Part shown: in pieces, positions 10,170-42,398 of the stretch
How positions within the stretch are numbered: position 1 is the stretch's first letter
Layout: the number at the start of each line of letters is the position of its first letter
Origin: Patescibacteria group bacterium
Lineage (GTDB): Bacteria > Patescibacteriota > Minisyncoccia > Moranbacterales > UBA2206
Direction of reading: 5' to 3'
Length of the DNA stretch: 48,598 bases
Assembly (NCBI GenBank): GCA_038063775.1
Contig: JBBTUK010000008.1
Location: forward strand, 1-48,598
Program-made: the position numbers and the translations under genes
The notes under the pieces: model-generated
Seen by the model: only the letters and a program-made list of their open reading frames with translations
Told to the model about the DNA's origin: nothing
Database searches by the model: none

Positions 10170-11102
10170 ATGGCCTTTTTAAAAAAATCATTATCGCTTA
10201 TTTTTGTCGTGATTGCAGTGGCCGCCGCCGGATTTGTGGTTTTTAAAAAGGGCCAGCCGGAATTGAGAAATTATATTCCAATTACCAAGCCCTGTTCATC
10301 GCCGCTTGCCTATGCCATTGGTAATGTTGATTCTCGATTTAACATAAGCAAGGACGGCGCGGCTGTGCTGGCTCAAAAGGCGGAGAATGTTTGGGAATCA
10401 CAGACGGGACTAGATTTGTTCCAATATGATCCGAACGCGCAACTGAAAATAAATTTTATATTTGACGCGCGGCAGCAGCAAGCGATTGAGGCCGTGGAAC
10501 TGGAACAAAAACTCGGAAAATTGAAAATTTCGGACAACAGCCTAAAAGTGCAATACAACAATCTGTATGCCGAGTATTCCAAAGAAATTGACAATTACAA
10601 CTCGTTGGCAAAAAAATACGAGAAGGAAATAAGTTCATATAACAAAGAAGTGAATCGCTGGAATAAAGTTGGGGGTGCGCCGCCGGATGAATATGAAAAG
10701 CTCAACAAAGAACAGGACGCTCTGGAAGCGATGCGAAAAAAACTGGAAAAAGAAAGAAAGAGCATCAACGATTTGATTAATCAGATGAATTCTCTGGCCA
10801 GCCGCGAAAAGCAGGTGATCAGCAGTTACAACGAATCATTGAACACTTTCCGGAACAAATACGGCGGAACGCGGGAATTTGAAAAAGGTATTTTCAATGG
10901 CCAAGAAGTTAACATTTACCAGTTTAATGAAGATTCAGATTTGGAATTAACAATCACTCACGAATTGGGCCATGCGCTCGGCATAGGGCATGTGGAAAAT
11001 ACCCAGTCAATCATGTATTATTTAATGGGAGAGCAGGACTTGGATCAGCCGACTCTTACAAGCGAGGATTTATCAGCGTTTAAAAGTGTTTGTCAATTAT
11101 GA
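10170..11102 (+). CDS. Membrane-anchored matrixin-like zinc metalloprotease with a long coiled-coil insert
   Basis: N-terminal TM helix (LSLIFVVIAVAAAGFVVF). HELGHALGIGH followed by SIMYY (Met-turn). About 150 aa of heptad-like K/E/N-rich sequence sits between the N-terminal and catalytic parts. Start taken at ATG 10170. Confidence 0.75.
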   Translation: MAFLKKSLSLIFVVIAVAAAGFVVFKKGQPELRNYIPITKPCSSPLAYAIGNVDSRFNISKDGAAVLAQKAENVWESQTGLDLFQYDPNAQLKINFIFDARQQQAIEAVELEQKLGKLKISDNSLKVQYNNLYAEYSKEIDNYNSLAKKYEKEISSYNKEVNRWNKVGGAPPDEYEKLNKEQDALEAMRKKLEKERKSINDLINQMNSLASREKQVISSYNESLNTFRNKYGGTREFEKGIFNGQEVNIYQFNEDSDLELTITHELGHALGIGHVENTQSIMYYLMGEQDLDQPTLTSEDLSAFKSVCQL

Positions 11103-11103
11103 A

Positions 11104-11206
11104 CCCCGTTAGAATTTTCAATTTATATATTGCGGGGCACTAAAAGTAATTAGTTTAATAATTTTCGCTGTTGACTTATAGCAATAGGTGTAAAATTATA
11201 ACGGGG
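11104..11206. mobile_element. MITE-like element (CCCCGTTAGAATTTT terminal inverted repeats) with TGAA duplication
   Basis: CCCCGTTAGAATTTTC (11104-11119) against the reverse complement of 11191-11206, CCCCGTTATAATTTTA: 14/16 (15/15 minus one mismatch over the first 15). TGAA at 11100-11103 and 11207-11210. Confidence 0.7.
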
Positions 11207-12465
11207 TGAACATAAAAATCAACCACATCGCGAAAATGGAAGGTCACGCGGGATTCATGGCCAGCGTTCTTCAGGGCGACGTGAAGTCGGCCAAGCTGGA
11301 AATCCAGGAAGGAATCCGTCTGATTGAAGGCGTGCTGATTGGCCGGGAATATAAAGATATGCCGATCGTGGCGCAACGGATTTGTGGAATTTGTCCGGTA
11401 GTACACAATTTAACCTCCATCAAAGCTTTGGAAAACGCTTTTGGGGTTGAGGTATCAAAAGAAACGAAAAAACTCAGGGAAGTTATGGAACTGGCGCAAA
11501 TTATCCATTCCCACGGATTGCATCTTTTCTTTTTATCGCTGGCCGATTTTTTGGATATGGAAAACGATTTGAATTTAATGCAAAAATATCCGGACGAGAC
11601 CAGAAAAGCCATTAGAATCCGGGAATATGGAATGGATATAGTTCGGGTTATCGGAGGCCGAGTAGTTCATCCACTGACCAATGAAGTGGGGGGATTCAAG
11701 AAAATTCCGGATAAAGAAGCGCTGAAAAAGATAGTTTCAGATTCCAAGGAAATATTGGGGCTAGCCATTGAATTGGGCGAGCTTTTTAAAAAAATAAAAA
11801 CTCCTGAATTTTACCGAAAAACCGAATATGTTTGTCTTGGAAAAAAAGGAGAATATGCCATTTATGATGGCGATATCGTTTCTTCCGAGGGCTTGCACAT
11901 ACCAGTGGCCAAGTTTGAAGCTAATTTTAACGAACTGCAAAAGCAGAAAGAAGTGATCAAAAAAGTCGAGCATGATGGAGAAAGTTATATGGTCGGCGCC
12001 ATTGCCAGAATCAATGTAAATCGGGAAAAACTTTCCTTGCAAGCAGAAAAATATTTGGAAAGTTTGAAGTGGAAATTTCCAGACTTCAATCCTTTCCATA
12101 ATATCTTGGCGCAAGTAACGGAAGTTATTCACGCCATTGAAAAATCAGCCGAACTTTTGCAGGAACTTATCAATTCTGATTTAAGGCAAGTTTTGACCAA
12201 GGAATATCAAATTAAAGAAGGTAGCGGAACGGCGGCCGTGGAAGCTCCGCGAGGGACTTTGTATTATCATGTGGAAGTGGATGGCAAAGGTTATATAAAG
12301 AATGTGAATATTATCACTCCCACCGCCCAATTCCTGGCGAATTTGGAAGATGATATAGCCAAATATATTCCGGAAATTCTGGATTTAGACGATAAAGAAA
12401 AAGAAAAAAAATTGCGAGCCTTTATCCGGGCTTATGATCCGTGCATCAGTTGCGCGGTGCATTAA
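11206..12465 (+). CDS. Cytoplasmic (group 3-type) [NiFe]-hydrogenase large subunit
   Basis: N-terminal RICGICPVVH and C-terminal DPCISCAVH Ni-binding motifs. The IAKMEGH N-terminus needs the GTG 11206 start, and an in-frame TAA lies at 11191. Confidence 0.9.
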   Translation: MNIKINHIAKMEGHAGFMASVLQGDVKSAKLEIQEGIRLIEGVLIGREYKDMPIVAQRICGICPVVHNLTSIKALENAFGVEVSKETKKLREVMELAQIIHSHGLHLFFLSLADFLDMENDLNLMQKYPDETRKAIRIREYGMDIVRVIGGRVVHPLTNEVGGFKKIPDKEALKKIVSDSKEILGLAIELGELFKKIKTPEFYRKTEYVCLGKKGEYAIYDGDIVSSEGLHIPVAKFEANFNELQKQKEVIKKVEHDGESYMVGAIARINVNREKLSLQAEKYLESLKWKFPDFNPFHNILAQVTEVIHAIEKSAELLQELINSDLRQVLTKEYQIKEGSGTAAVEAPRGTLYYHVEVDGKGYIKNVNIITPTAQFLANLEDDIAKYIPEILDLDDKEKEKKLRAFIRAYDPCISCAVH

Positions 12466-15435: not shown

Positions 15436-15497
15436 CCCCGTTAGATATGCGGGGAAATGCTGCGGGTAATAATGTAATGATAAATTATCTAACGGAG
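15436..15497. mobile_element. MITE-like element (CCCCGTTAGATA terminal inverted repeats) with TGAA duplication
   Basis: CCCCGTTAGATA (15436-15447) against the reverse complement of 15486-15497, CTCCGTTAGATA: 11/12. TGAA at 15432-15435 and 15498-15501. Confidence 0.7.
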
Positions 15498-37727: not shown

Positions 37728-37808
37728 ATGTCTAAATATATTCCAGTTATCGGAATGGAGATTCACCCCGTAAAATCCCGAGGCGGGATCACGGGGCAAG
37801 CGTCTTAA
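37728..37808 (+). pseudogene. Ghost gatB 5' fragment: 13 GatB-like codons (MSKYIPVIGMEIH) running into a hairpin. 26-codon upstream ORF.
   Basis: 10 of 13 residues match the real GatB N-terminus (MSKYKPTIGLEIH). The stop TAA (37806-37808) lies 3 nt before the real ATG. Confidence 0.7.
37766..37796 (+). repeat. 31-nt palindromic element CCCCGTAAAATCCCG-AGG-CGGGATCACGGGG
   Basis: CCCCGT/ACGGGG and ATCCCG/CGGGAT stems. Followed by CAAG + 11 nt + ATG, the same layout as at miaB. Confidence 0.85.
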
Positions 37809-37811
37809 ATT

Positions 37812-39281
37812 ATGAGTAAATATAAACCAACAATTGGCTTAGAGATTCATGTTGAGCTGAAGACCGAATCTAAGATGTTTTGTGACAGCAAAAACGGTTT
37901 AGGGCTGGAAAAGGAACCCAATGTGAACATTTGTCCGGTTTGCACGGGACAACCCGGAACTCTGCCGGTGCCGAATCAAAAAGCGATTGAATTCGTGCAA
38001 AAAGCCGGCTTGGCTTTAAATTGCCAATTGCGGGAAGTTTCCAAATTCGACCGAAAAAACTATTTTTACCCCGATCTCCCGAAAGGTTATCAGATTTCCC
38101 AATATGACCAGCCGCTCTGCGAAAAAGGAAAAATAGAAATTGGTGGAAAAGAAATCGGTATAACCCGGATTCATTTGGAAGAAGATACTGGAAAACTTAT
38201 TCACCCCAAAGGTGGAAAGTATTCACTTTTTGATTATAACCGAGCTGGTGTGCCGCTTATGGAACTTGTGACCGAGCCGGAGATTGAAAGCGGGAAAGAG
38301 GCTCGGATTTTTTGCCAGAAACTTCAGCAAATTTTCCGGTATCTCGAAATTTCCGAAGCGGATATGGAAAAAGGCCACATGCGCTGCGAAGTGAACATTT
38401 CGCTTTACAAAAATAGTGAAGATAAATTGAGCGGAACGAAAGTGGAAATTAAAAACCTAAATTCTTTCCGGGTGGTTGAAAAATCAATCGATTTCGAGAT
38501 TGAGCGCCAAAAAGCGGCCCTAGAGAGCGGAGAAAAAATTATTCAGGAAACGAGGGGCTGGGGTGAAAATAAGGGAGAAACCGTAACTCAGCGAGAAAAA
38601 GAATCAGCTCATGAATATCGATACTTTCCTGAACCGGATATTCCCACTTTGCGATTTACTCAAGAATACATAGAAAATTTAAGAAAAAAATTGCCGGAAC
38701 TTCCTGATGCCAAAGAAAAAAGATTCATCGAAGAATACAATTTATCCCCGGAAAATGTGGGTGTTATAGTAGGCGACAAAAATTTGGCTGATTATTTCGA
38801 GCATGTCGTCTCAGAAATAAGGGAAAAGATGGACTGTGGAGAACTTGATGTGGAAGAAAAAAAGTGCGTAAAATTAGCTGCCAATTATATGGTGAGCGAA
38901 TTACAGAAGCACTTGATCGAGAATAAAGAAACTATAGAGAACGTTAAGATAACACCGGAAAATTATGCAGAGCTGGTCGGATTTGTGGCGAACGGAAAAA
39001 TTAGCTCCAGCGGAGTTCAGGTTGTCTTGGAAGAAATGTATAAGAAAGGCGGAGATCCCTCCCAGATTATTGAAGAAAAAAATTTGCTTCAATTAAACGA
39101 TGAAAAGCATTTGGAAGAGATTGTTGATAAAGTTTTGAAAGAACACCAGCAATCTGCAGCGGATTATAAAAGTGGAAAAGAAAATGCTCTGCAATTTTTA
39201 GTGGGTCAAGTTATGAAAGAATCAAAAGGGAAGGCTAACCCGCAAATCGTGCAAGAATTACTAGGAAAGAAGCTGAAATAG
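37812..39281 (+). CDS. gatB: Aspartyl/glutamyl-tRNA amidotransferase subunit B
   Basis: IGLEIHVELKT and CPVCTGQPGTLP motifs, with a YqeY-like C-terminal tail. Confidence 0.95.
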   Translation: MSKYKPTIGLEIHVELKTESKMFCDSKNGLGLEKEPNVNICPVCTGQPGTLPVPNQKAIEFVQKAGLALNCQLREVSKFDRKNYFYPDLPKGYQISQYDQPLCEKGKIEIGGKEIGITRIHLEEDTGKLIHPKGGKYSLFDYNRAGVPLMELVTEPEIESGKEARIFCQKLQQIFRYLEISEADMEKGHMRCEVNISLYKNSEDKLSGTKVEIKNLNSFRVVEKSIDFEIERQKAALESGEKIIQETRGWGENKGETVTQREKESAHEYRYFPEPDIPTLRFTQEYIENLRKKLPELPDAKEKRFIEEYNLSPENVGVIVGDKNLADYFEHVVSEIREKMDCGELDVEEKKCVKLAANYMVSELQKHLIENKETIENVKITPENYAELVGFVANGKISSSGVQVVLEEMYKKGGDPSQIIEEKNLLQLNDEKHLEEIVDKVLKEHQQSAADYKSGKENALQFLVGQVMKESKGKANPQIVQELLGKKLK

Positions 39282-39352
39282 TAATAATATCGGGTGTGCA
39301 TAAGTCGTATTGCTTGAAATATCACAAGATGTTAGAATGGACAAAACATGAA

Positions 39353-39450
39353 TCCCGTTACAAAATTCACTTAAGACTTGAAATAACGGGATTTTCGCAA
39401 CAGTTTTTGTTTTTAATGCCATTAAATCGTATATCAAATTCGTAACGGGA
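39353..39450. mobile_element. MITE-like element (TCCCGTTAC... terminal inverted repeats) with TGAA duplication and an extra internal arm
   Basis: TCCCGTTACAAAATTC (39353-39368) against the reverse complement of 39435-39450, TCCCGTTACGAATTTG: 13/16. TGAA at 39349-39352 and 39451-39454. An internal TAACGGGATT (39384-39393) pairs with 39351-39360. Confidence 0.6.
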
Positions 39451-39572
39451 TGAAAAAGCTGAAATGGCCGAGCGCAATTAAATGGTTCTGCAAAGTGACA
39501 GGAAGGTCGCCCATAAAGGCGATTTTTTTTATGATATTTTTGGTTTTCAATAGTAATAAAAAACATTCGTGA
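39450..39572 (+). CDS. Candidate 40-aa hydrophobic peptide (MKKLKWPSAIKWFCKVTGRSPIKAIFFMIFLVFNSNKKHS)
   Basis: Open frame whose ATG is rebuilt by the MITE end, as at two verified genes. No SD and no homology recognised. Confidence 0.3.
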   Translation: MKKLKWPSAIKWFCKVTGRSPIKAIFFMIFLVFNSNKKHS

Positions 39573-39590
39573 TCCGAAAGGAGGGGCCAT

Positions 39591-39815
39591 ATGATAGGTG
39601 ACGGAATTCCGAAAAGGAGAAAAGGAGGATTGACAGAGACTAAGGTTGAGCAGGTGCCGTGTCCGATGCTGAAAGGAGCAACATGCAGTGCACCCAAAAC
39701 GAGGGCGAAACTTTCAGATCCATCAGCGTGTTTCGTCGACAATTCATGCGTTCCTGGGCAACGATTTCCCAAGGAATTCACCGAAGAAGCTCAGAAAGTA
39801 GTATGTCATAGGTAA
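39591..39815 (+). CDS. Candidate 74-aa basic, Cys-containing small protein
   Basis: Very strong SD (AAGGAGG, 39578-39584) 6 nt before the ATG, followed by a strong hairpin. The region looks GC-richer than its flanks by eye. No homology recognised, and it could instead be a structured RNA. Confidence 0.4.
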   Translation: MIGDGIPKRRKGGLTETKVEQVPCPMLKGATCSAPKTRAKLSDPSACFVDNSCVPGQRFPKEFTEEAQKVVCHR

Positions 39816-39837
39816 GACATGACTACGCGAAACAAAA

Positions 39838-39868
39838 GTCCCGGCGAGAGGAGCACCTCCGCCGGGAC
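39838..39868. terminator. Strong hairpin between the convergent small ORF and miaA. Terminator for miaA (T-rich on the minus side).
   Basis: GTCCCGGCG-A-GAGG-AGCA-CCTC-CGCCGGGAC. On the minus strand it is followed by TTTTGTTT. Confidence 0.7.
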
Positions 39869-39883
39869 GATATTATTTATGGG

Positions 39884-40783
39884 TTAATTTAGGAATTTTT
39901 TCACCTCCCTTTCAATTTCTTTATACCTTTTCAACCATACAATGCGTTTGTCTTTTCTGAACCAAGTCATTTGGCGCTTGGCATAATCCTTTTCGGCTAA
40001 ATAAACCCGTTTTTCCAGTTCGTACATAGATATTTTCCCTTCAAGATATAAAGGTACCCAGAAATAGCACAAGCCGAAACTCTGGATTTTTTTCCAGCTT
40101 AGCCCGTTTTTTCTTAAAGTTTTTACTTCTTCTATCAAGCCGGCCTGGAATCTTTTTTTCAGGCGTTTTTTTATTTTATCGTGGAGGAGCTCTCGGGGAA
40201 CATCCATTCCAATTTGCAGGAATCTATAATCAGTAGCCCGAAATCCGAAGATTATGCCTTGAGGAACTTTCCCGAGTTTTTGGCATATTTCGATGGCTCT
40301 TATAATCCGCACCTTGTTCTTTGAGTCAATATTTTTGGCTCGTTCCGGATCTACTTCTTTTAACATTGAGAATAATTTCCTCGCGTTTAACTTTCCTAAT
40401 GTTTCTCGGAGTTTCCAATCAGGCTTGACTTCGGGAAAATTTACGTCATCAACGACAGACTTTATCCAAAAGCCCGTTCCGCCACAGATGATAGGGACTT
40501 TTTTTCTTCCAAAAATATCCGAGATTATTTTTTCCGCCTCCCTCTTGAAAAGAGCGACGCTATAATTTTCCTTGGGGCTAACGATGTCCAACATCCAATG
40601 GCGGGCCATTTTCTGCTCCGATTTTGTAACTTTTCCGGTCCCCAGATCCATCTTGCGATATATCTGCCGGCTGTCAGCGGAGATTATTTCACCATTAAAT
40701 TTTTTAGCCAACTTAATCGCCACAGACGACTTCCCGGAAGAAGTCGGGCCGAGAATAACAATAATTTTTTTAGAAGTATTCAT
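39884..40783 (-). CDS. miaA: tRNA dimethylallyltransferase
   Basis: ILGPTSSGKS P-loop, ISADSRQIY and GGTGFW motifs. Confidence 0.93.
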   Translation of the reverse strand: MNTSKKIIVILGPTSSGKSSVAIKLAKKFNGEIISADSRQIYRKMDLGTGKVTKSEQKMARHWMLDIVSPKENYSVALFKREAEKIISDIFGRKKVPIICGGTGFWIKSVVDDVNFPEVKPDWKLRETLGKLNARKLFSMLKEVDPERAKNIDSKNKVRIIRAIEICQKLGKVPQGIIFGFRATDYRFLQIGMDVPRELLHDKIKKRLKKRFQAGLIEEVKTLRKNGLSWKKIQSFGLCYFWVPLYLEGKISMYELEKRVYLAEKDYAKRQMTWFRKDKRIVWLKRYKEIEREVKKFLN

Positions 40784-40922: not shown

Positions 40923-42317
40923 TTAAGTATTGCCTAATTTACCTTCGAGATTCCATATATTGGCTTTGGTTATTTTAACTTTCACAAATTGTCCCACCAA
41001 ACCTTTTTTATTTGAAATAATCTTAACATTTTTCATTGTGCGTGTTTTTCCGAAGTAGAAATCGCCCTTTTTGCTATCAATTAGCACTTCCAGTGTTTTT
41101 CCAATATATTTTTTGTTGTTGGTAAAAACGGTTTTCTTCAGAATTTCGTTAAGATATTTTTCTCGCCTGGCTTTTTCCTTTTTGGATACGTTATCCTTCA
41201 TCTTCCAAGCAACCGTGCCCGGGCGGGGAGAGTATTGTCCGAAATATACCATATCATACATTGCTCTTTTCATCATTTCGGCCGAGGCAAGAAAATTCCT
41301 TTTTGTTTCACCAGGAAAGCCGACAATTATATCCGAAGTTATGGAAAATAATTTTTGTGGCTTATATCTTTTGAAAGCTACTTTTATTTTTTTGATCAAA
41401 GTCAGATATTGATGGCTGGTATATCGGCGGTTCATTTTCCGTATAATTGCATCATTGCCTGACTGAATTGGTAAATGAAAACACTCGCAAATCTTGGGAA
41501 GCTTGGCAACTGTTTCAATCATTTCATCCGTGACGTCTTTGGGGTGGTTGCTGATAAAACTGATCCAAAAATGCCCGGGGATGGCATTGATCGTCCTAAG
41601 TAGTTTTGAAAAAGTAATGACTTTATCCTCCTTCGCTGATGCTTCGGCGGATGAATTCTTATCGATAAATCGATAAGAATTCACATTCTGTCCCAGCAAA
41701 ACAATTTCTTTGTACCTATTTTTAACTAAATTTTTAACTTCTTTTATTATTTCCTCCGCTGGCCGTGAAACTTCGCGTCCTCTGGCATACGGCACTACAC
41801 AATAAGAGCAAAAATTATTACAGCCGGTCATGATCGGAATGTAGGCCTGGAATTTATTGGCATGCTTAGGTTTAATGGATAGATAGGCAATGCTTTCTTT
41901 GTTTGGAGTATTATTACTTTGTGTAATTTTCAATTTTAAATTTTCAATTTTCAATGAATTTTTAATGATAAAATTTTCAAATGTTTTAAAATCGTTTATG
42001 GTAAAAAACAAATTCACCTTATTTTTCAAACGCCTTTGCACATCTTTCCTGTTTGCCAAGCATCCTGTGAGAACAATTTTCACTTTTTTGCTGCTTTTTC
42101 TCAAATTATGGATTTGTCCATAAGCCCGGTCTTCAGCCATCTGCCGCACGCCGCAAGTGTTGAAAACAACCAAATCCGCCTTCGCTAAAGCTTCGGCGGA
42201 CAAGTCCGCTCCTGGTAAAGGCGAAAAACCACAACTTTCTAGACAAGCGGCAATTCGCTCCGAGTCCGAATGGTTCATCTGACAACCAAGAGTCTTGATA
42301 TAATATTTTTTAGTCAT
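40923..42317 (-). CDS. miaB: tRNA-2-methylthio-N6-dimethylallyladenosine synthase (radical SAM methylthiotransferase)
   Basis: IKTLGCQMNHSDSE UPF0004 N-domain, the CNNFCSYCVVP radical-SAM cluster and a C-terminal TRAM domain. Confidence 0.93.
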   Translation of the reverse strand: MTKKYYIKTLGCQMNHSDSERIAACLESCGFSPLPGADLSAEALAKADLVVFNTCGVRQMAEDRAYGQIHNLRKSSKKVKIVLTGCLANRKDVQRRLKNKVNLFFTINDFKTFENFIIKNSLKIENLKLKITQSNNTPNKESIAYLSIKPKHANKFQAYIPIMTGCNNFCSYCVVPYARGREVSRPAEEIIKEVKNLVKNRYKEIVLLGQNVNSYRFIDKNSSAEASAKEDKVITFSKLLRTINAIPGHFWISFISNHPKDVTDEMIETVAKLPKICECFHLPIQSGNDAIIRKMNRRYTSHQYLTLIKKIKVAFKRYKPQKLFSITSDIIVGFPGETKRNFLASAEMMKRAMYDMVYFGQYSPRPGTVAWKMKDNVSKKEKARREKYLNEILKKTVFTNNKKYIGKTLEVLIDSKKGDFYFGKTRTMKNVKIISNKKGLVGQFVKVKITKANIWNLEGKLGNT

Positions 42318-42323
42318 AGTGAT

Positions 42324-42398
42324 TCATTCTTGCCCCGTACCAAGCCCTGCTTTGGTACTGGGGTGACAACCGAAAGTTTTAATAAGATATTTTTTCAT
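42324..42398 (-). pseudogene. Ghost miaB 5' fragment: MKKYLIKTFGC then hairpin-encoded residues. 24-codon upstream ORF.
   Basis: Compare the real MiaB MTKKYYIKTLGCQMN. The frame leaves MiaB homology exactly at TGT CA|C CCC. The stop TGA lies 6 nt before the real ATG. Confidence 0.7.
42333..42363 (-). repeat. 31-nt palindromic element (minus strand CCCCAGTACCAAAGC-AGG-GCTTGGTACGGGG)
   Basis: Same length, same central AGG, same CCCC/GGGG ends and the same 3' ACGGGGCAAG as the gatB element. Confidence 0.85.

Follow-up and report, generated by a model that had tools for sequence, protein, structure and literature searches.

The 98 nucleotides (nt) at positions 39353-39450 of contig JBBTUK010000008.1, from a Patescibacteria group bacterium, very likely are a non-autonomous member of a family of foldback elements associated with a small GIY-YIG nuclease, which inserted on the start codon of a short leader open reading frame (ORF) and brought its internal arm along as an inherited part. 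The family apparently has not been described before. In the following, the window is the whole stretch of 48,598 nt that was analyzed, which corresponds to contig C8 of a genome (G000) with 717 kb, 43% G+C, 33 contigs and 87% coding density. An earlier sequence-only reading of the window had described the segment as the third copy of a MITE (miniature inverted-repeat transposable element) with an extra internal arm, whose alternative pairings would cover or free an ATG in the manner of a riboregulator. Its observations are confirmed by our analysis and its interpretation is supported in part.

The element lies in a 602-nt spacer between two convergent ORFs at 37812-39281 (+) and 39884-40783 (-), which we take to be gatB-like and miaA-like on reading their protein sequences, without a domain search. 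At the left junction cATGAA is followed by TCCCGTTACAAAATTC, the 5' terminal arm (39353-39368, +), and at the right junction the 3' terminal arm CAAATTCGTAACGGGA (39435-39450, +) is followed by TGAAAAAG. Both arms were found in the sequence and by a repeat finder. They are complementary at 13 of 16 positions, with a perfect match over the first nine bases and mismatches at arm positions 10, 13 and 16, and a direct duplication of TGAA borders them (39349-39352 and 39451-39454). The final A of the element (39450) together with the adjoining TG forms an ATG (39450-39452), which is the start of the present-day 40-codon leader ORF (39450-39572, +). The original start codon (39348-39350) now opens an ORF of eight codons, MNPVTKFT and a stop, that runs into the element (39348-39374, +). 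The internal arm TAACGGGATT (39384-39393, +) is a perfect 10-nt complement to AATCCCGTTA (39351-39360). Terminal (I1) and internal (I2) pairing were recovered independently by the repeat finder, and TCCCGTTAC is restricted to two places at this locus in the 48.6-kb window, where 0.24 would be expected. The sequence-only reading had placed the junctions, the arms, the duplication, the rebuilt ATG and the internal pairing at the same positions, and it was also right about the number of copies, the other two in the window being located at about 11099-11211 and 15436-15497.

Direct evidence for an insertion is provided by the sister species (G001), the sole other genome of the same genus in our set. 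Similarity at the DNA level spans from gatB to ...GGACAAAATATGA and picks up again in the miaA-proximal part. The base-by-base alignment holds through ...ACAAAATATGA and then resumes with identical spacing: the sister species has TTGCTT, 17 nt, TAGAAT, 9 nt and an ATG, and leads from there straight into the sequence that follows the element in the window. From the ATG through the conserved motif TGCAAAGTGAC (ATG-to-GTGAC) the distance is 50 nt, both in the sister species and in the window after removal of 39353-39454. The 102 nt missing from the sister species are the 98-nt element plus one TGAA, and the tetranucleotide itself reads TGAG there, within an ATGAG without element. The segment 39353-39450 is a true insertion, and the two species form a filled/empty pair with a 4-nt target duplication. 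Because the sister species is without exactly those 102 nt, the arrangement of repeats is far beyond chance. The empty site thus bears out the original idea that a MITE-like element inserted here, duplicated TGAA and rebuilt the start codon.

Regular-expression and profile searches located further copies in the same genome. The family has termini YCCCGTTA...TAACGGGR, a length of about 75-116 nt and a 4-nt duplication; the window copy shares these features with its termini TCCCGTTAC and GTAACGGGA, 98 nt and TGAA, and represents a GTTAC variant of the extended consensus YCCCGTTAGAA...TTCTAACGGGR. About ten copies are present in this genome. Those of about 100 nt with YCCCGTTAGAATTT...AAATTCTAACGGGR termini are found on contigs C4, C8 (the one at about 11099-11211), C12, C20 (two) and C31. 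C6 has one degenerate copy and C14 has two; a short copy is present on C7, and another of 62 nt is situated at 15436-15497 of the window. Four copies adjoin ORFs of 247-419 amino acids (aa) at [AG]TG with zero spacer, and the window copy at about 11099-11211 lies at the start of a 419-aa ORF resembling a hydrogenase large subunit. Of 61 related Patescibacteria genomes, 17 contain the strict pattern CCCGTTAGAA-N(50-110)-TTCTAACGGG, with at most 14 copies per genome, and the reversed control pattern yields none; GTTAC instead of GTTAG termini recur in four copies from three of the 61. A profile built from 25 copies of other genomes covers the window copy end to end (39348-39455, +) with E=0.05 genome-wide, and we therefore regard the latter as a diverged family member. 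The interiors of the elements are wholly different between subfamilies. A scan against Rfam, comprising the window, the locus at E up to 10 and seven other copies, returned tRNAs only and no family for the element, and no ORF overlapping the element matches Pfam. We also considered that the strand opposite to the element might carry real genes, but Pfam gave no support and the idea was dropped.

Widening the spacing between the termini to 111-400 nt reveals longer relatives that suggest how such elements could move. Elements of 273-276 nt with family termini are present in three genomes (G003, G038 and G050), each with a single ORF of 86-87 aa, and a 289-nt match in G028 also starts with a GIY-YIG-like frame. 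The 86-87-aa ORF belongs to the GIY-YIG family (PF01541, E=3.3e-13), and the nearest solved structure is that of the UPF0213 protein BH0048 (PDB 1ZG2, E=2.5e-10). Its final codons (F-L-T-G) coincide with the right terminal repeat, and the flanking DNA supplies the stop. The genome of the window has at least nine loci matching the nuclease; three of them, on C9, C10 and C20, have terminal repeats starting with CCCCG and the others have none. The elements at C10:3020-3340 and C20:55660-55972 carry CCCCGTAGTGAAAC... ends, as does the MITE on C31, and both sit on gene starts, the former with a target site duplication of TATG and the latter at what we take to be a secA-like start. The third (C9:36500-36800) has CCCCGCACTAAC... 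ends and a target site duplication of TTGA, at a TTGACA-17-TATAAT promoter. From this organization we infer that the GIY-YIG protein may mobilize the element family. Another observation concerns a MITE of G028 (L041), whose internal arm (ATTATACGGGATAC) resembles the stretch coding for Y-T-G of the GIY-YIG motif in the full-length element L026 (GGTATACGGGCTATAC); the internal arm may therefore descend from the nuclease gene through internal deletion. The threonine (ACG) of this Y-T-G occupies a position where isoleucine or valine is usual, which could reflect a constraint at the nucleotide level.

Several points weigh against assigning the window copy to a nuclease-driven family. It reaches only E=0.05 on the profile built without it, and the enzyme-encoding partners carry GTTAG or GTAGT ends, with no full-length partner having GTTAC ends found in the 61 genomes. 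The flanks are not always direct duplications, being inverted or unrelated in some copies. Moreover, the copies are phylogenetically related and several insertions are orthologous, so that counts overstate the number of independent events. Finally, GIY-YIG nucleases are not known to act as transposases.

The choice of targets is a prominent property of the family. We tabulated 61 copies with their flanks. An ATG, GTG or TTG that opens an ORF of at least 50 aa adjoins 32 of them, and 25 of these 32 retain an ATG immediately 5', typically in the form ATGAAC-element-GTGAA.... Another 16 copies have TTGAC, that is a -35 box, on the outer side, in ten cases with a TAnn[AT]T hexamer 16-18 nt further, and several more of the TTGAC copies have good -10 boxes as judged by eye. 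Start codons are hence not the sole target, and in both classes the functional motif 3' of the element stays intact. The right terminus of the family is always a purine, which pairs with the pyrimidine of the left end. Because this terminal R is joined to the TG of the duplication, the start codon is regenerated directly behind the element, and insertions on gene starts can survive for the same reason. As a crude null we counted 8411 TGAA sites in the genome of the window, of which 1017 lie beyond any ORF of 80 aa or more, and 153 genes that start with NTGAA. On this basis, 13% of tolerated TGAA insertions would be expected at start codons, versus 22 of the 24 ATGRA-flanked copies (P about 1e-17). 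Orthologous or recurrent insertions inflate these counts, for example at a PSP1-like gene (G000, G009 and G035), a hydrogenase-like gene (G000 and G028) and a murD-like gene (G000 and G001); the excess of start codons is still large. A preference for TGAA irrespective of ATG context, which the sequence-only reading had named as the outcome that would speak against it, is not what the family displays. That reading had also offered a real small gene or a preference for ATGAA as alternatives, and both turn out to hold, as start codons are preferred by the family and the locus has a real short ORF that had gone unannotated.

Several other readings of the start-codon copies were tried and dismissed. 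A preference for leaderless genes is at odds with the finding of a -10-like box 5-12 nt upstream in 3 of 25 start-codon sites, compared with a background of 21%; the window locus is among those few. Read-through of the element from the upstream ATG is prevented here by the stop after eight codons and elsewhere by a distance between ATG and start that is not a multiple of three (107 nt for the copy at 11105). RNA splicing or ribosome hopping between the duplicated ATGAA and RTGAA was rejected in view of frames that are inconsistent between copies (L024) and of the empty site at the DNA level. An outward promoter in the 3' arm (TAAAAT, 9-10 nt 5' of the start), from which leaderless mRNAs would arise, was not adopted either, as it is present in some subfamilies only and degenerate here (TCAAAT).

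The unit hit by the window copy is itself of interest. It begins with a candidate host promoter on the + strand, made up of TTGCTT (39310-39315), a 17-nt spacer and TAGAAT (39333-39338), with the -10 box ending 9 nt before ATG 39348. Since this pair stays below the threshold of a consensus scan, the promoter is proposed from conservation: both hexamers are identical in the sister species, and 7 of the 17 spacer bases differ. A terminator scan identified an intrinsic terminator within the 40-codon ORF (39500-39536, +), made up of 39500-39529 and the T-run, with the core stem TCGCC/GGCGA and a T8 run; it is kept in the sister species, where a C-to-T change preserves a G-U pair on the + strand only. 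Further downstream (39577-39815, +), the Shine-Dalgarno sequence AAAGGAGG (39577-39584) precedes an ORF of 74 aa with five cysteines (39591-39815), for which neither Pfam nor NCBIfam has a match. Between this ORF and the convergent miaA, the repeat finder detected a GC-rich hairpin GTCCCGGCG/CGCCGGGAC (I4, 39838-39868), also kept in the sister species, that probably serves as a shared terminator.

The same leader module is found in ten genomes, eight detected by script and two by reading the sequence: the window (39310-39870), L071 (G001), L080 (G013), L082 (G002), L084 (G018), L095 (G010), L096 (G005), L101 (G045), L103 (G038) and L032 (G049). The order is a promoter-like pair, an ATG 7-11 nt past the -10 box, an ORF of 14-40 codons, an intrinsic terminator and a downstream gene. 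The terminator is situated at or shortly past the end of the ORF, whose stop falls within or close to the hairpin in six of the ten genomes. Most of these genomes have the module between gatB and miaA. The downstream gene is usually a small Cys-rich ORF with a strong Shine-Dalgarno sequence. Such ORFs are present in synteny in G001, G002, G005, G009, G013, G018, G022, G045 and G046, and the proteins they encode are highly diverse. What follows the module in G010 and G038 is a larger ORF, which we presume, without a domain search, to be aspartate carbamoyltransferase (pyrB)-like. At the position of the leader ORF the nine other genomes have ORFs of 14-37 codons whose sequence is not conserved, and that of the sister species encodes 21 aa with its stop in the terminator loop. 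The leader peptides are rich in Lys and Arg, and the RNA is rich in A. The 'hydrophobic' tail arises in G000 and G013, where the frame continues across the T-run of the terminator. The recurrence of the module confirms a real unannotated short ORF at ATG 39450, as had been surmised. Its mRNA is probably leaderless or nearly so, and the module, judged from its order of signals, looks like an attenuator-like unit placed ahead of the gene for a small Cys-rich protein, resembling a leaderless leader-peptide attenuator. In a crude count, a Shine-Dalgarno-like motif occurs 4-18 nt 5' of the called start in about 12% of the ORFs of at least 150 aa in the genome of the window, which suggests that this lineage initiates translation largely without Shine-Dalgarno sequences.

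A separate observation was made in G049, from a different family of the order. Here (L032, C34, about 400-500) a copy of the element lies on the TTGACA -35 box of the corresponding leader module, with TTGA duplicated. The module was thus struck twice independently, once per target type, at the start codon in the window and at the -35 box in G049.

The third arm can be traced through the family as well. A [CT]GGG[GA] motif complementary to the 5' terminus is found 22-34 nt from the 5' end in 21 of the 32 start-codon copies and at the mirrored position in 1 of 32; one further short start-codon copy has it at 14 nt. The 29 other copies contain the motif four and three times on the two strands. 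In the window copy the CGGGA core is 33 nt from the start of the CCCG terminus, 5' of ATG 39450 and within the family range. For a folding test, each element was folded without its last 18 nt and scored for local pairing of the first six bases. Such a 5' hairpin forms in 28 of 32 start-codon copies, compared with 3 of 32 in the mirrored test and 7 of 58 for the other copies (Fisher P 2e-10 and 1e-12), and its location is invariably upstream with respect to the gene. The sense strand forms it with greater stability than the complement does (-10.4 versus -8.6 kcal/mol, Wilcoxon P=0.005), with 24 of 255 pairs being G-U. The internal arm is a conserved, oriented and strand-biased part of the start-codon subfamilies. 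It had been described as an extra, which would make it a local addition; instead it belongs to the normal architecture of start-codon copies. Its pairing partner, the 5' arm, is invariant.

The energetics distinguish the window copy from its relatives. In typical copies the terminal stem measures 12-28 bp (16.7 on average), and the whole element folds at -27.6 kcal/mol versus -13.5 kcal/mol without the 3' arm; the terminal stem is favored by about 14 kcal/mol and wins at equilibrium. For the window copy the internal fold has -18.4 and the terminal fold -19.1 kcal/mol, the two being isoenergetic because decay has left the terminal repeat at 13/16, whereas the unusually long internal pairing matches at 10/10. 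When the full leader is included, the minimum-energy fold takes the proximal hairpin. As a sign of selection at the RNA level we looked for a G-T (versus A-C) bias among terminal-stem mismatches and found none.

These alternative folds are what a riboregulator would build on: the 5' arm would pair either with the internal arm, leaving the 3' arm and AUG 39450 free, or with the 3' arm, so that the A of this AUG is buried at the base of a stem, and the switch would set translation of the leader ORF and, via the terminator, expression of the 74-aa gene. The near-isoenergetic folds of the window copy and the proximal hairpin in the full-leader minimum agree with such a device, as do the family-wide association of the 5' hairpin with start-codon copies, always 5' of the start, its greater strength on the sense strand and its G-U pairs. 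Furthermore, an unstructured start region should matter where a Shine-Dalgarno-like motif is so rare. However, in typical copies the terminal stem is so much longer and more stable that an internal helix of 5-9 bp should be displaced fast. Neither a trigger nor a ligand pocket or conserved loop is apparent, and the interiors are unrelated between subfamilies; Rfam has no match at E up to 10, the terminal-stem mismatches have no G-U bias, and the sense-strand bias is equally compatible with recognition of the top strand as single-stranded DNA (ssDNA). Because the arm arrived with the element, it did not evolve for the leader gene. Hence, the mutually exclusive pairings that involve the ATG are physically real, but they are inherited from the family, and we consider a riboregulator at this locus unlikely. 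Compared with a hairpin intrinsic to the element, a locus-specific riboregulator is the less likely reading.

Two further alternatives concern the ORF and the repeat itself. The ORF at 39450-39572 might encode a genuine small membrane protein of 40 aa, with the element merely in front of it, given that 40 codons are open from a conserved ATG and that the tail AIFFMIFLVF is hydrophobic. Yet the frame has 21 codons in the sister species, and elsewhere its length varies and its sequence is unconserved; the tail is a translation of the T8 run and the AT-rich spacer behind it, and Pfam has no match for the ORF. Because the tail is encoded by the T8 run and beyond, transcripts that end at the terminator would have no stop codon. 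Since the peptides are unconserved and the tail is a translated T-run, we read 39450-39572 as a leader ORF; a 40-aa hydrophobic peptide as originally proposed is not borne out and seems very improbable. It is even harder to believe that the repeat is not mobile DNA at all and represents a cis-regulatory RNA of the host or a protein-binding palindrome at gene starts. The location of copies at functional sites, start codons and -35 boxes, would be in line with this, and so would the positions common to several genera at the PSP1-like and hydrogenase-like genes. Against it stand the presence/absence polymorphism with a 4-nt duplication between sister species, the unrelated interiors, the nuclease gene between identical repeats in the full-length versions and the absence of an Rfam match.

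For the favored explanation, a non-autonomous foldback element inserted on the leader-ORF start codon, the following course of events is likely. After the split from the sister species, the element entered the TGAA overlapping the start codon and duplicated it, and its terminal purine together with TG re-formed a start codon behind it. The internal arm is the standard partner of the 5'-proximal hairpin of the family, carried in with the element. The copy is by now old, its terminal repeat having decayed. Transcription from 39310-39338 would begin a few bases before ATG 39348, which presumably now opens an 8-codon decoy ORF ending at 39374. The rebuilt ATG would come 102 nt further downstream, at the base of the terminal stem and without a Shine-Dalgarno sequence. 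Thereby the leader ORF, leaderless before the insertion, probably acquired a structured leader of 102 nt, with lower leader translation as the expected consequence rather than added regulation. Given that only about 12% of gene starts have a Shine-Dalgarno-like motif, initiation probably depends on open structure, and the alternative pairing could therefore matter.

As to the 5' hairpin, we infer a structure for single-strand recognition. Recognition of the top strand as ssDNA is the role to which we give most weight, though somewhat less than half; a relic comes next, and a role at the mRNA level is considered least probable of the three. By analogy with the Ssn and IS200/IS605 systems compared below, recognition of a top-strand DNA hairpin would explain the family-wide arm at least as well as regulation. 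More speculatively, the family might represent a new class of bacterial mobile elements, driven by a minimal GIY-YIG nuclease of about 86 aa in place of a DDE, serine, tyrosine or HUH enzyme, that targets start codons and -35 boxes by homing and restores both by design, with a functional 5' hairpin that selects the start-codon target on ssDNA or keeps the rebuilt start accessible in mRNA; we offer this broader proposal tentatively and regard it as doubtful at present. If the GIY-YIG protein does mobilize the elements, this would constitute a transposition chemistry not described in bacteria and a natural function for the extensive group of small uncharacterized GIY-YIG proteins that are common in ultra-small bacteria. 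The combination of a terminal purine with a TG-containing duplication illustrates how a parasite can occupy the starts of essential genes in an 87%-coding genome without killing its host. The window copy supplies a clean filled/empty pair and an experimental handle. It also reveals an unannotated and widely conserved module of leader ORF and terminator in Patescibacteria, and shows the third arm to be a conserved, oriented part of the element, with DNA recognition, mRNA accessibility or relic as its possible roles.

A few copies and related structures deserve mention on their own. In the 62-nt copy at 15436-15497 of the window, the internal CGGGG follows just 14 nt from the 5' end, and the 3' arm (CGGAG) is degenerate. 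This copy occupies the start of a murD-like ORF (ATGAA, element, GTGAAGCTTGAAGAT...), whose ortholog in the sister species likewise carries an element at its start (L022). The 75-nt copy L015 (G020:C1, 1501-1575) is placed two codons into a leucyl-tRNA-synthetase-like ORF (ATGGAC, element, GCAAGC) with a junction without RTG; an in-frame ATG in the 3' part of the element (ATGGCAATTTCTAACGGG) would provide a start and add six residues. Two cassettes in the window at 37728-37814 and 42315-42398, each composed of a ghost N-terminus plus hairpin at the starts of gatB and miaB, end with ...ACGGGG followed by CAAG. The same CAAG flank occurs beside the family copies L015, L033, L040 and L058, which suggests kinship of these cassettes with the foldback family. 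Finally, three hairpins of 42-48 nt with CCCCGTTAAATCC...TTTAACGGGG are present in the genome of the window (C9:43430-43471, C17:16951-16998 and C22:8928-8975), two of them shortly 5' of gene starts. Their two inner stem-loops differ by compensatory changes, and Rfam has no match for them; they may form a short subfamily, or else a structured element in their own right.

Comparison with known systems has to separate the target from the element. The target unit shares with the classical leader-peptide attenuators, such as the trp, his and pyrBI leaders of E. coli, and with leaderless short-ORF attenuators the succession of a promoter, a short ORF at the 5' end, a terminator at the end of this ORF and then the gene, as seen in the ten genomes. 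It differs in that the gene encodes a small Cys-rich protein in most genomes, including this one, and in that neither a run of regulatory codons nor an antiterminator hairpin, for which no search was made, was identified in the leader module. Elements of the IS200/IS605 group make no target duplication, carry subterminal hairpins at both ends and insert 3' of a fixed tetranucleotide by means of a Y1 (HUH) tyrosine enzyme. With them and with the REP/BIME sequences the foldback elements have in common the tiny size, hairpins on one strand, an orientation fixed with respect to a target that is short and asymmetric, and a wealth of non-autonomous hairpin derivatives, and the sense-strand bias of the 5' hairpin fits this style. 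The duplication, the long-range terminal repeats and the hairpin at one end only set them apart from this group.

Among MITEs, the Correia/NEMIS elements of Neisseria are closest in size and in effects on mRNA. Their hairpins can act on mRNA, as by RNase III processing or promoters inside the element; they have a TA duplication, terminal repeats of about 26 bp and an IHF site (PMC10969869). A length of about 100 bp, terminal inverted repeats, a short duplication and many gene-adjacent copies are shared, and Correia elements and MITEs are co-transcribed with genes. In contrast, the window copy has a TGAA duplication, 16-bp repeats and an unrelated sequence, which places it outside the Correia family. 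Correia elements are without a known nuclease-encoding parent, whereas the candidate parent here is a GIY-YIG nuclease and not a DDE transposase, and the terminal purine plus duplication regenerates a start codon. The term 'start codon' is nowhere in the text of a 2024 review of prokaryotic MITEs (PMC10969869), and our literature searches found neither MITEs on start codons nor bacterial or candidate phyla radiation (CPR) GIY-YIG elements with terminal repeats and target duplications.

Judged by analogy, the nearest described system is the Ssn family. SsnA is a single-domain GIY-YIG protein of 94 aa that cuts ssDNA beside a hairpin, and its authors likened the NTS-ssnA-NTS arrangement to that of an insertion sequence (Chenal et al., Nat Commun 2025, PMC11893778). 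Ssn is assigned to the clade CDD cd10448, and the foldback nuclease has a UPF0213 protein as its nearest solved structure. The repeat CCCCGTTAGAA found here differs from the NTS of Ssn (CGTCATTCCCGCG...), and terminal inverted repeats of 14-17 bp enclose the whole element instead of the local 28-nt hairpins of Ssn. Further differences are the 4-nt duplications, the empty site in the sister species and the targeting of start codons and -35 boxes. What connects both systems is a single-domain GIY-YIG protein of about 90 aa between hairpin repeats, called NTS/SRM in the Ssn system, that are also scattered over the genome, a layout seen in the full-length relatives (86-87 aa, PF01541) and at other loci of the same genome rather than inside the window copy.

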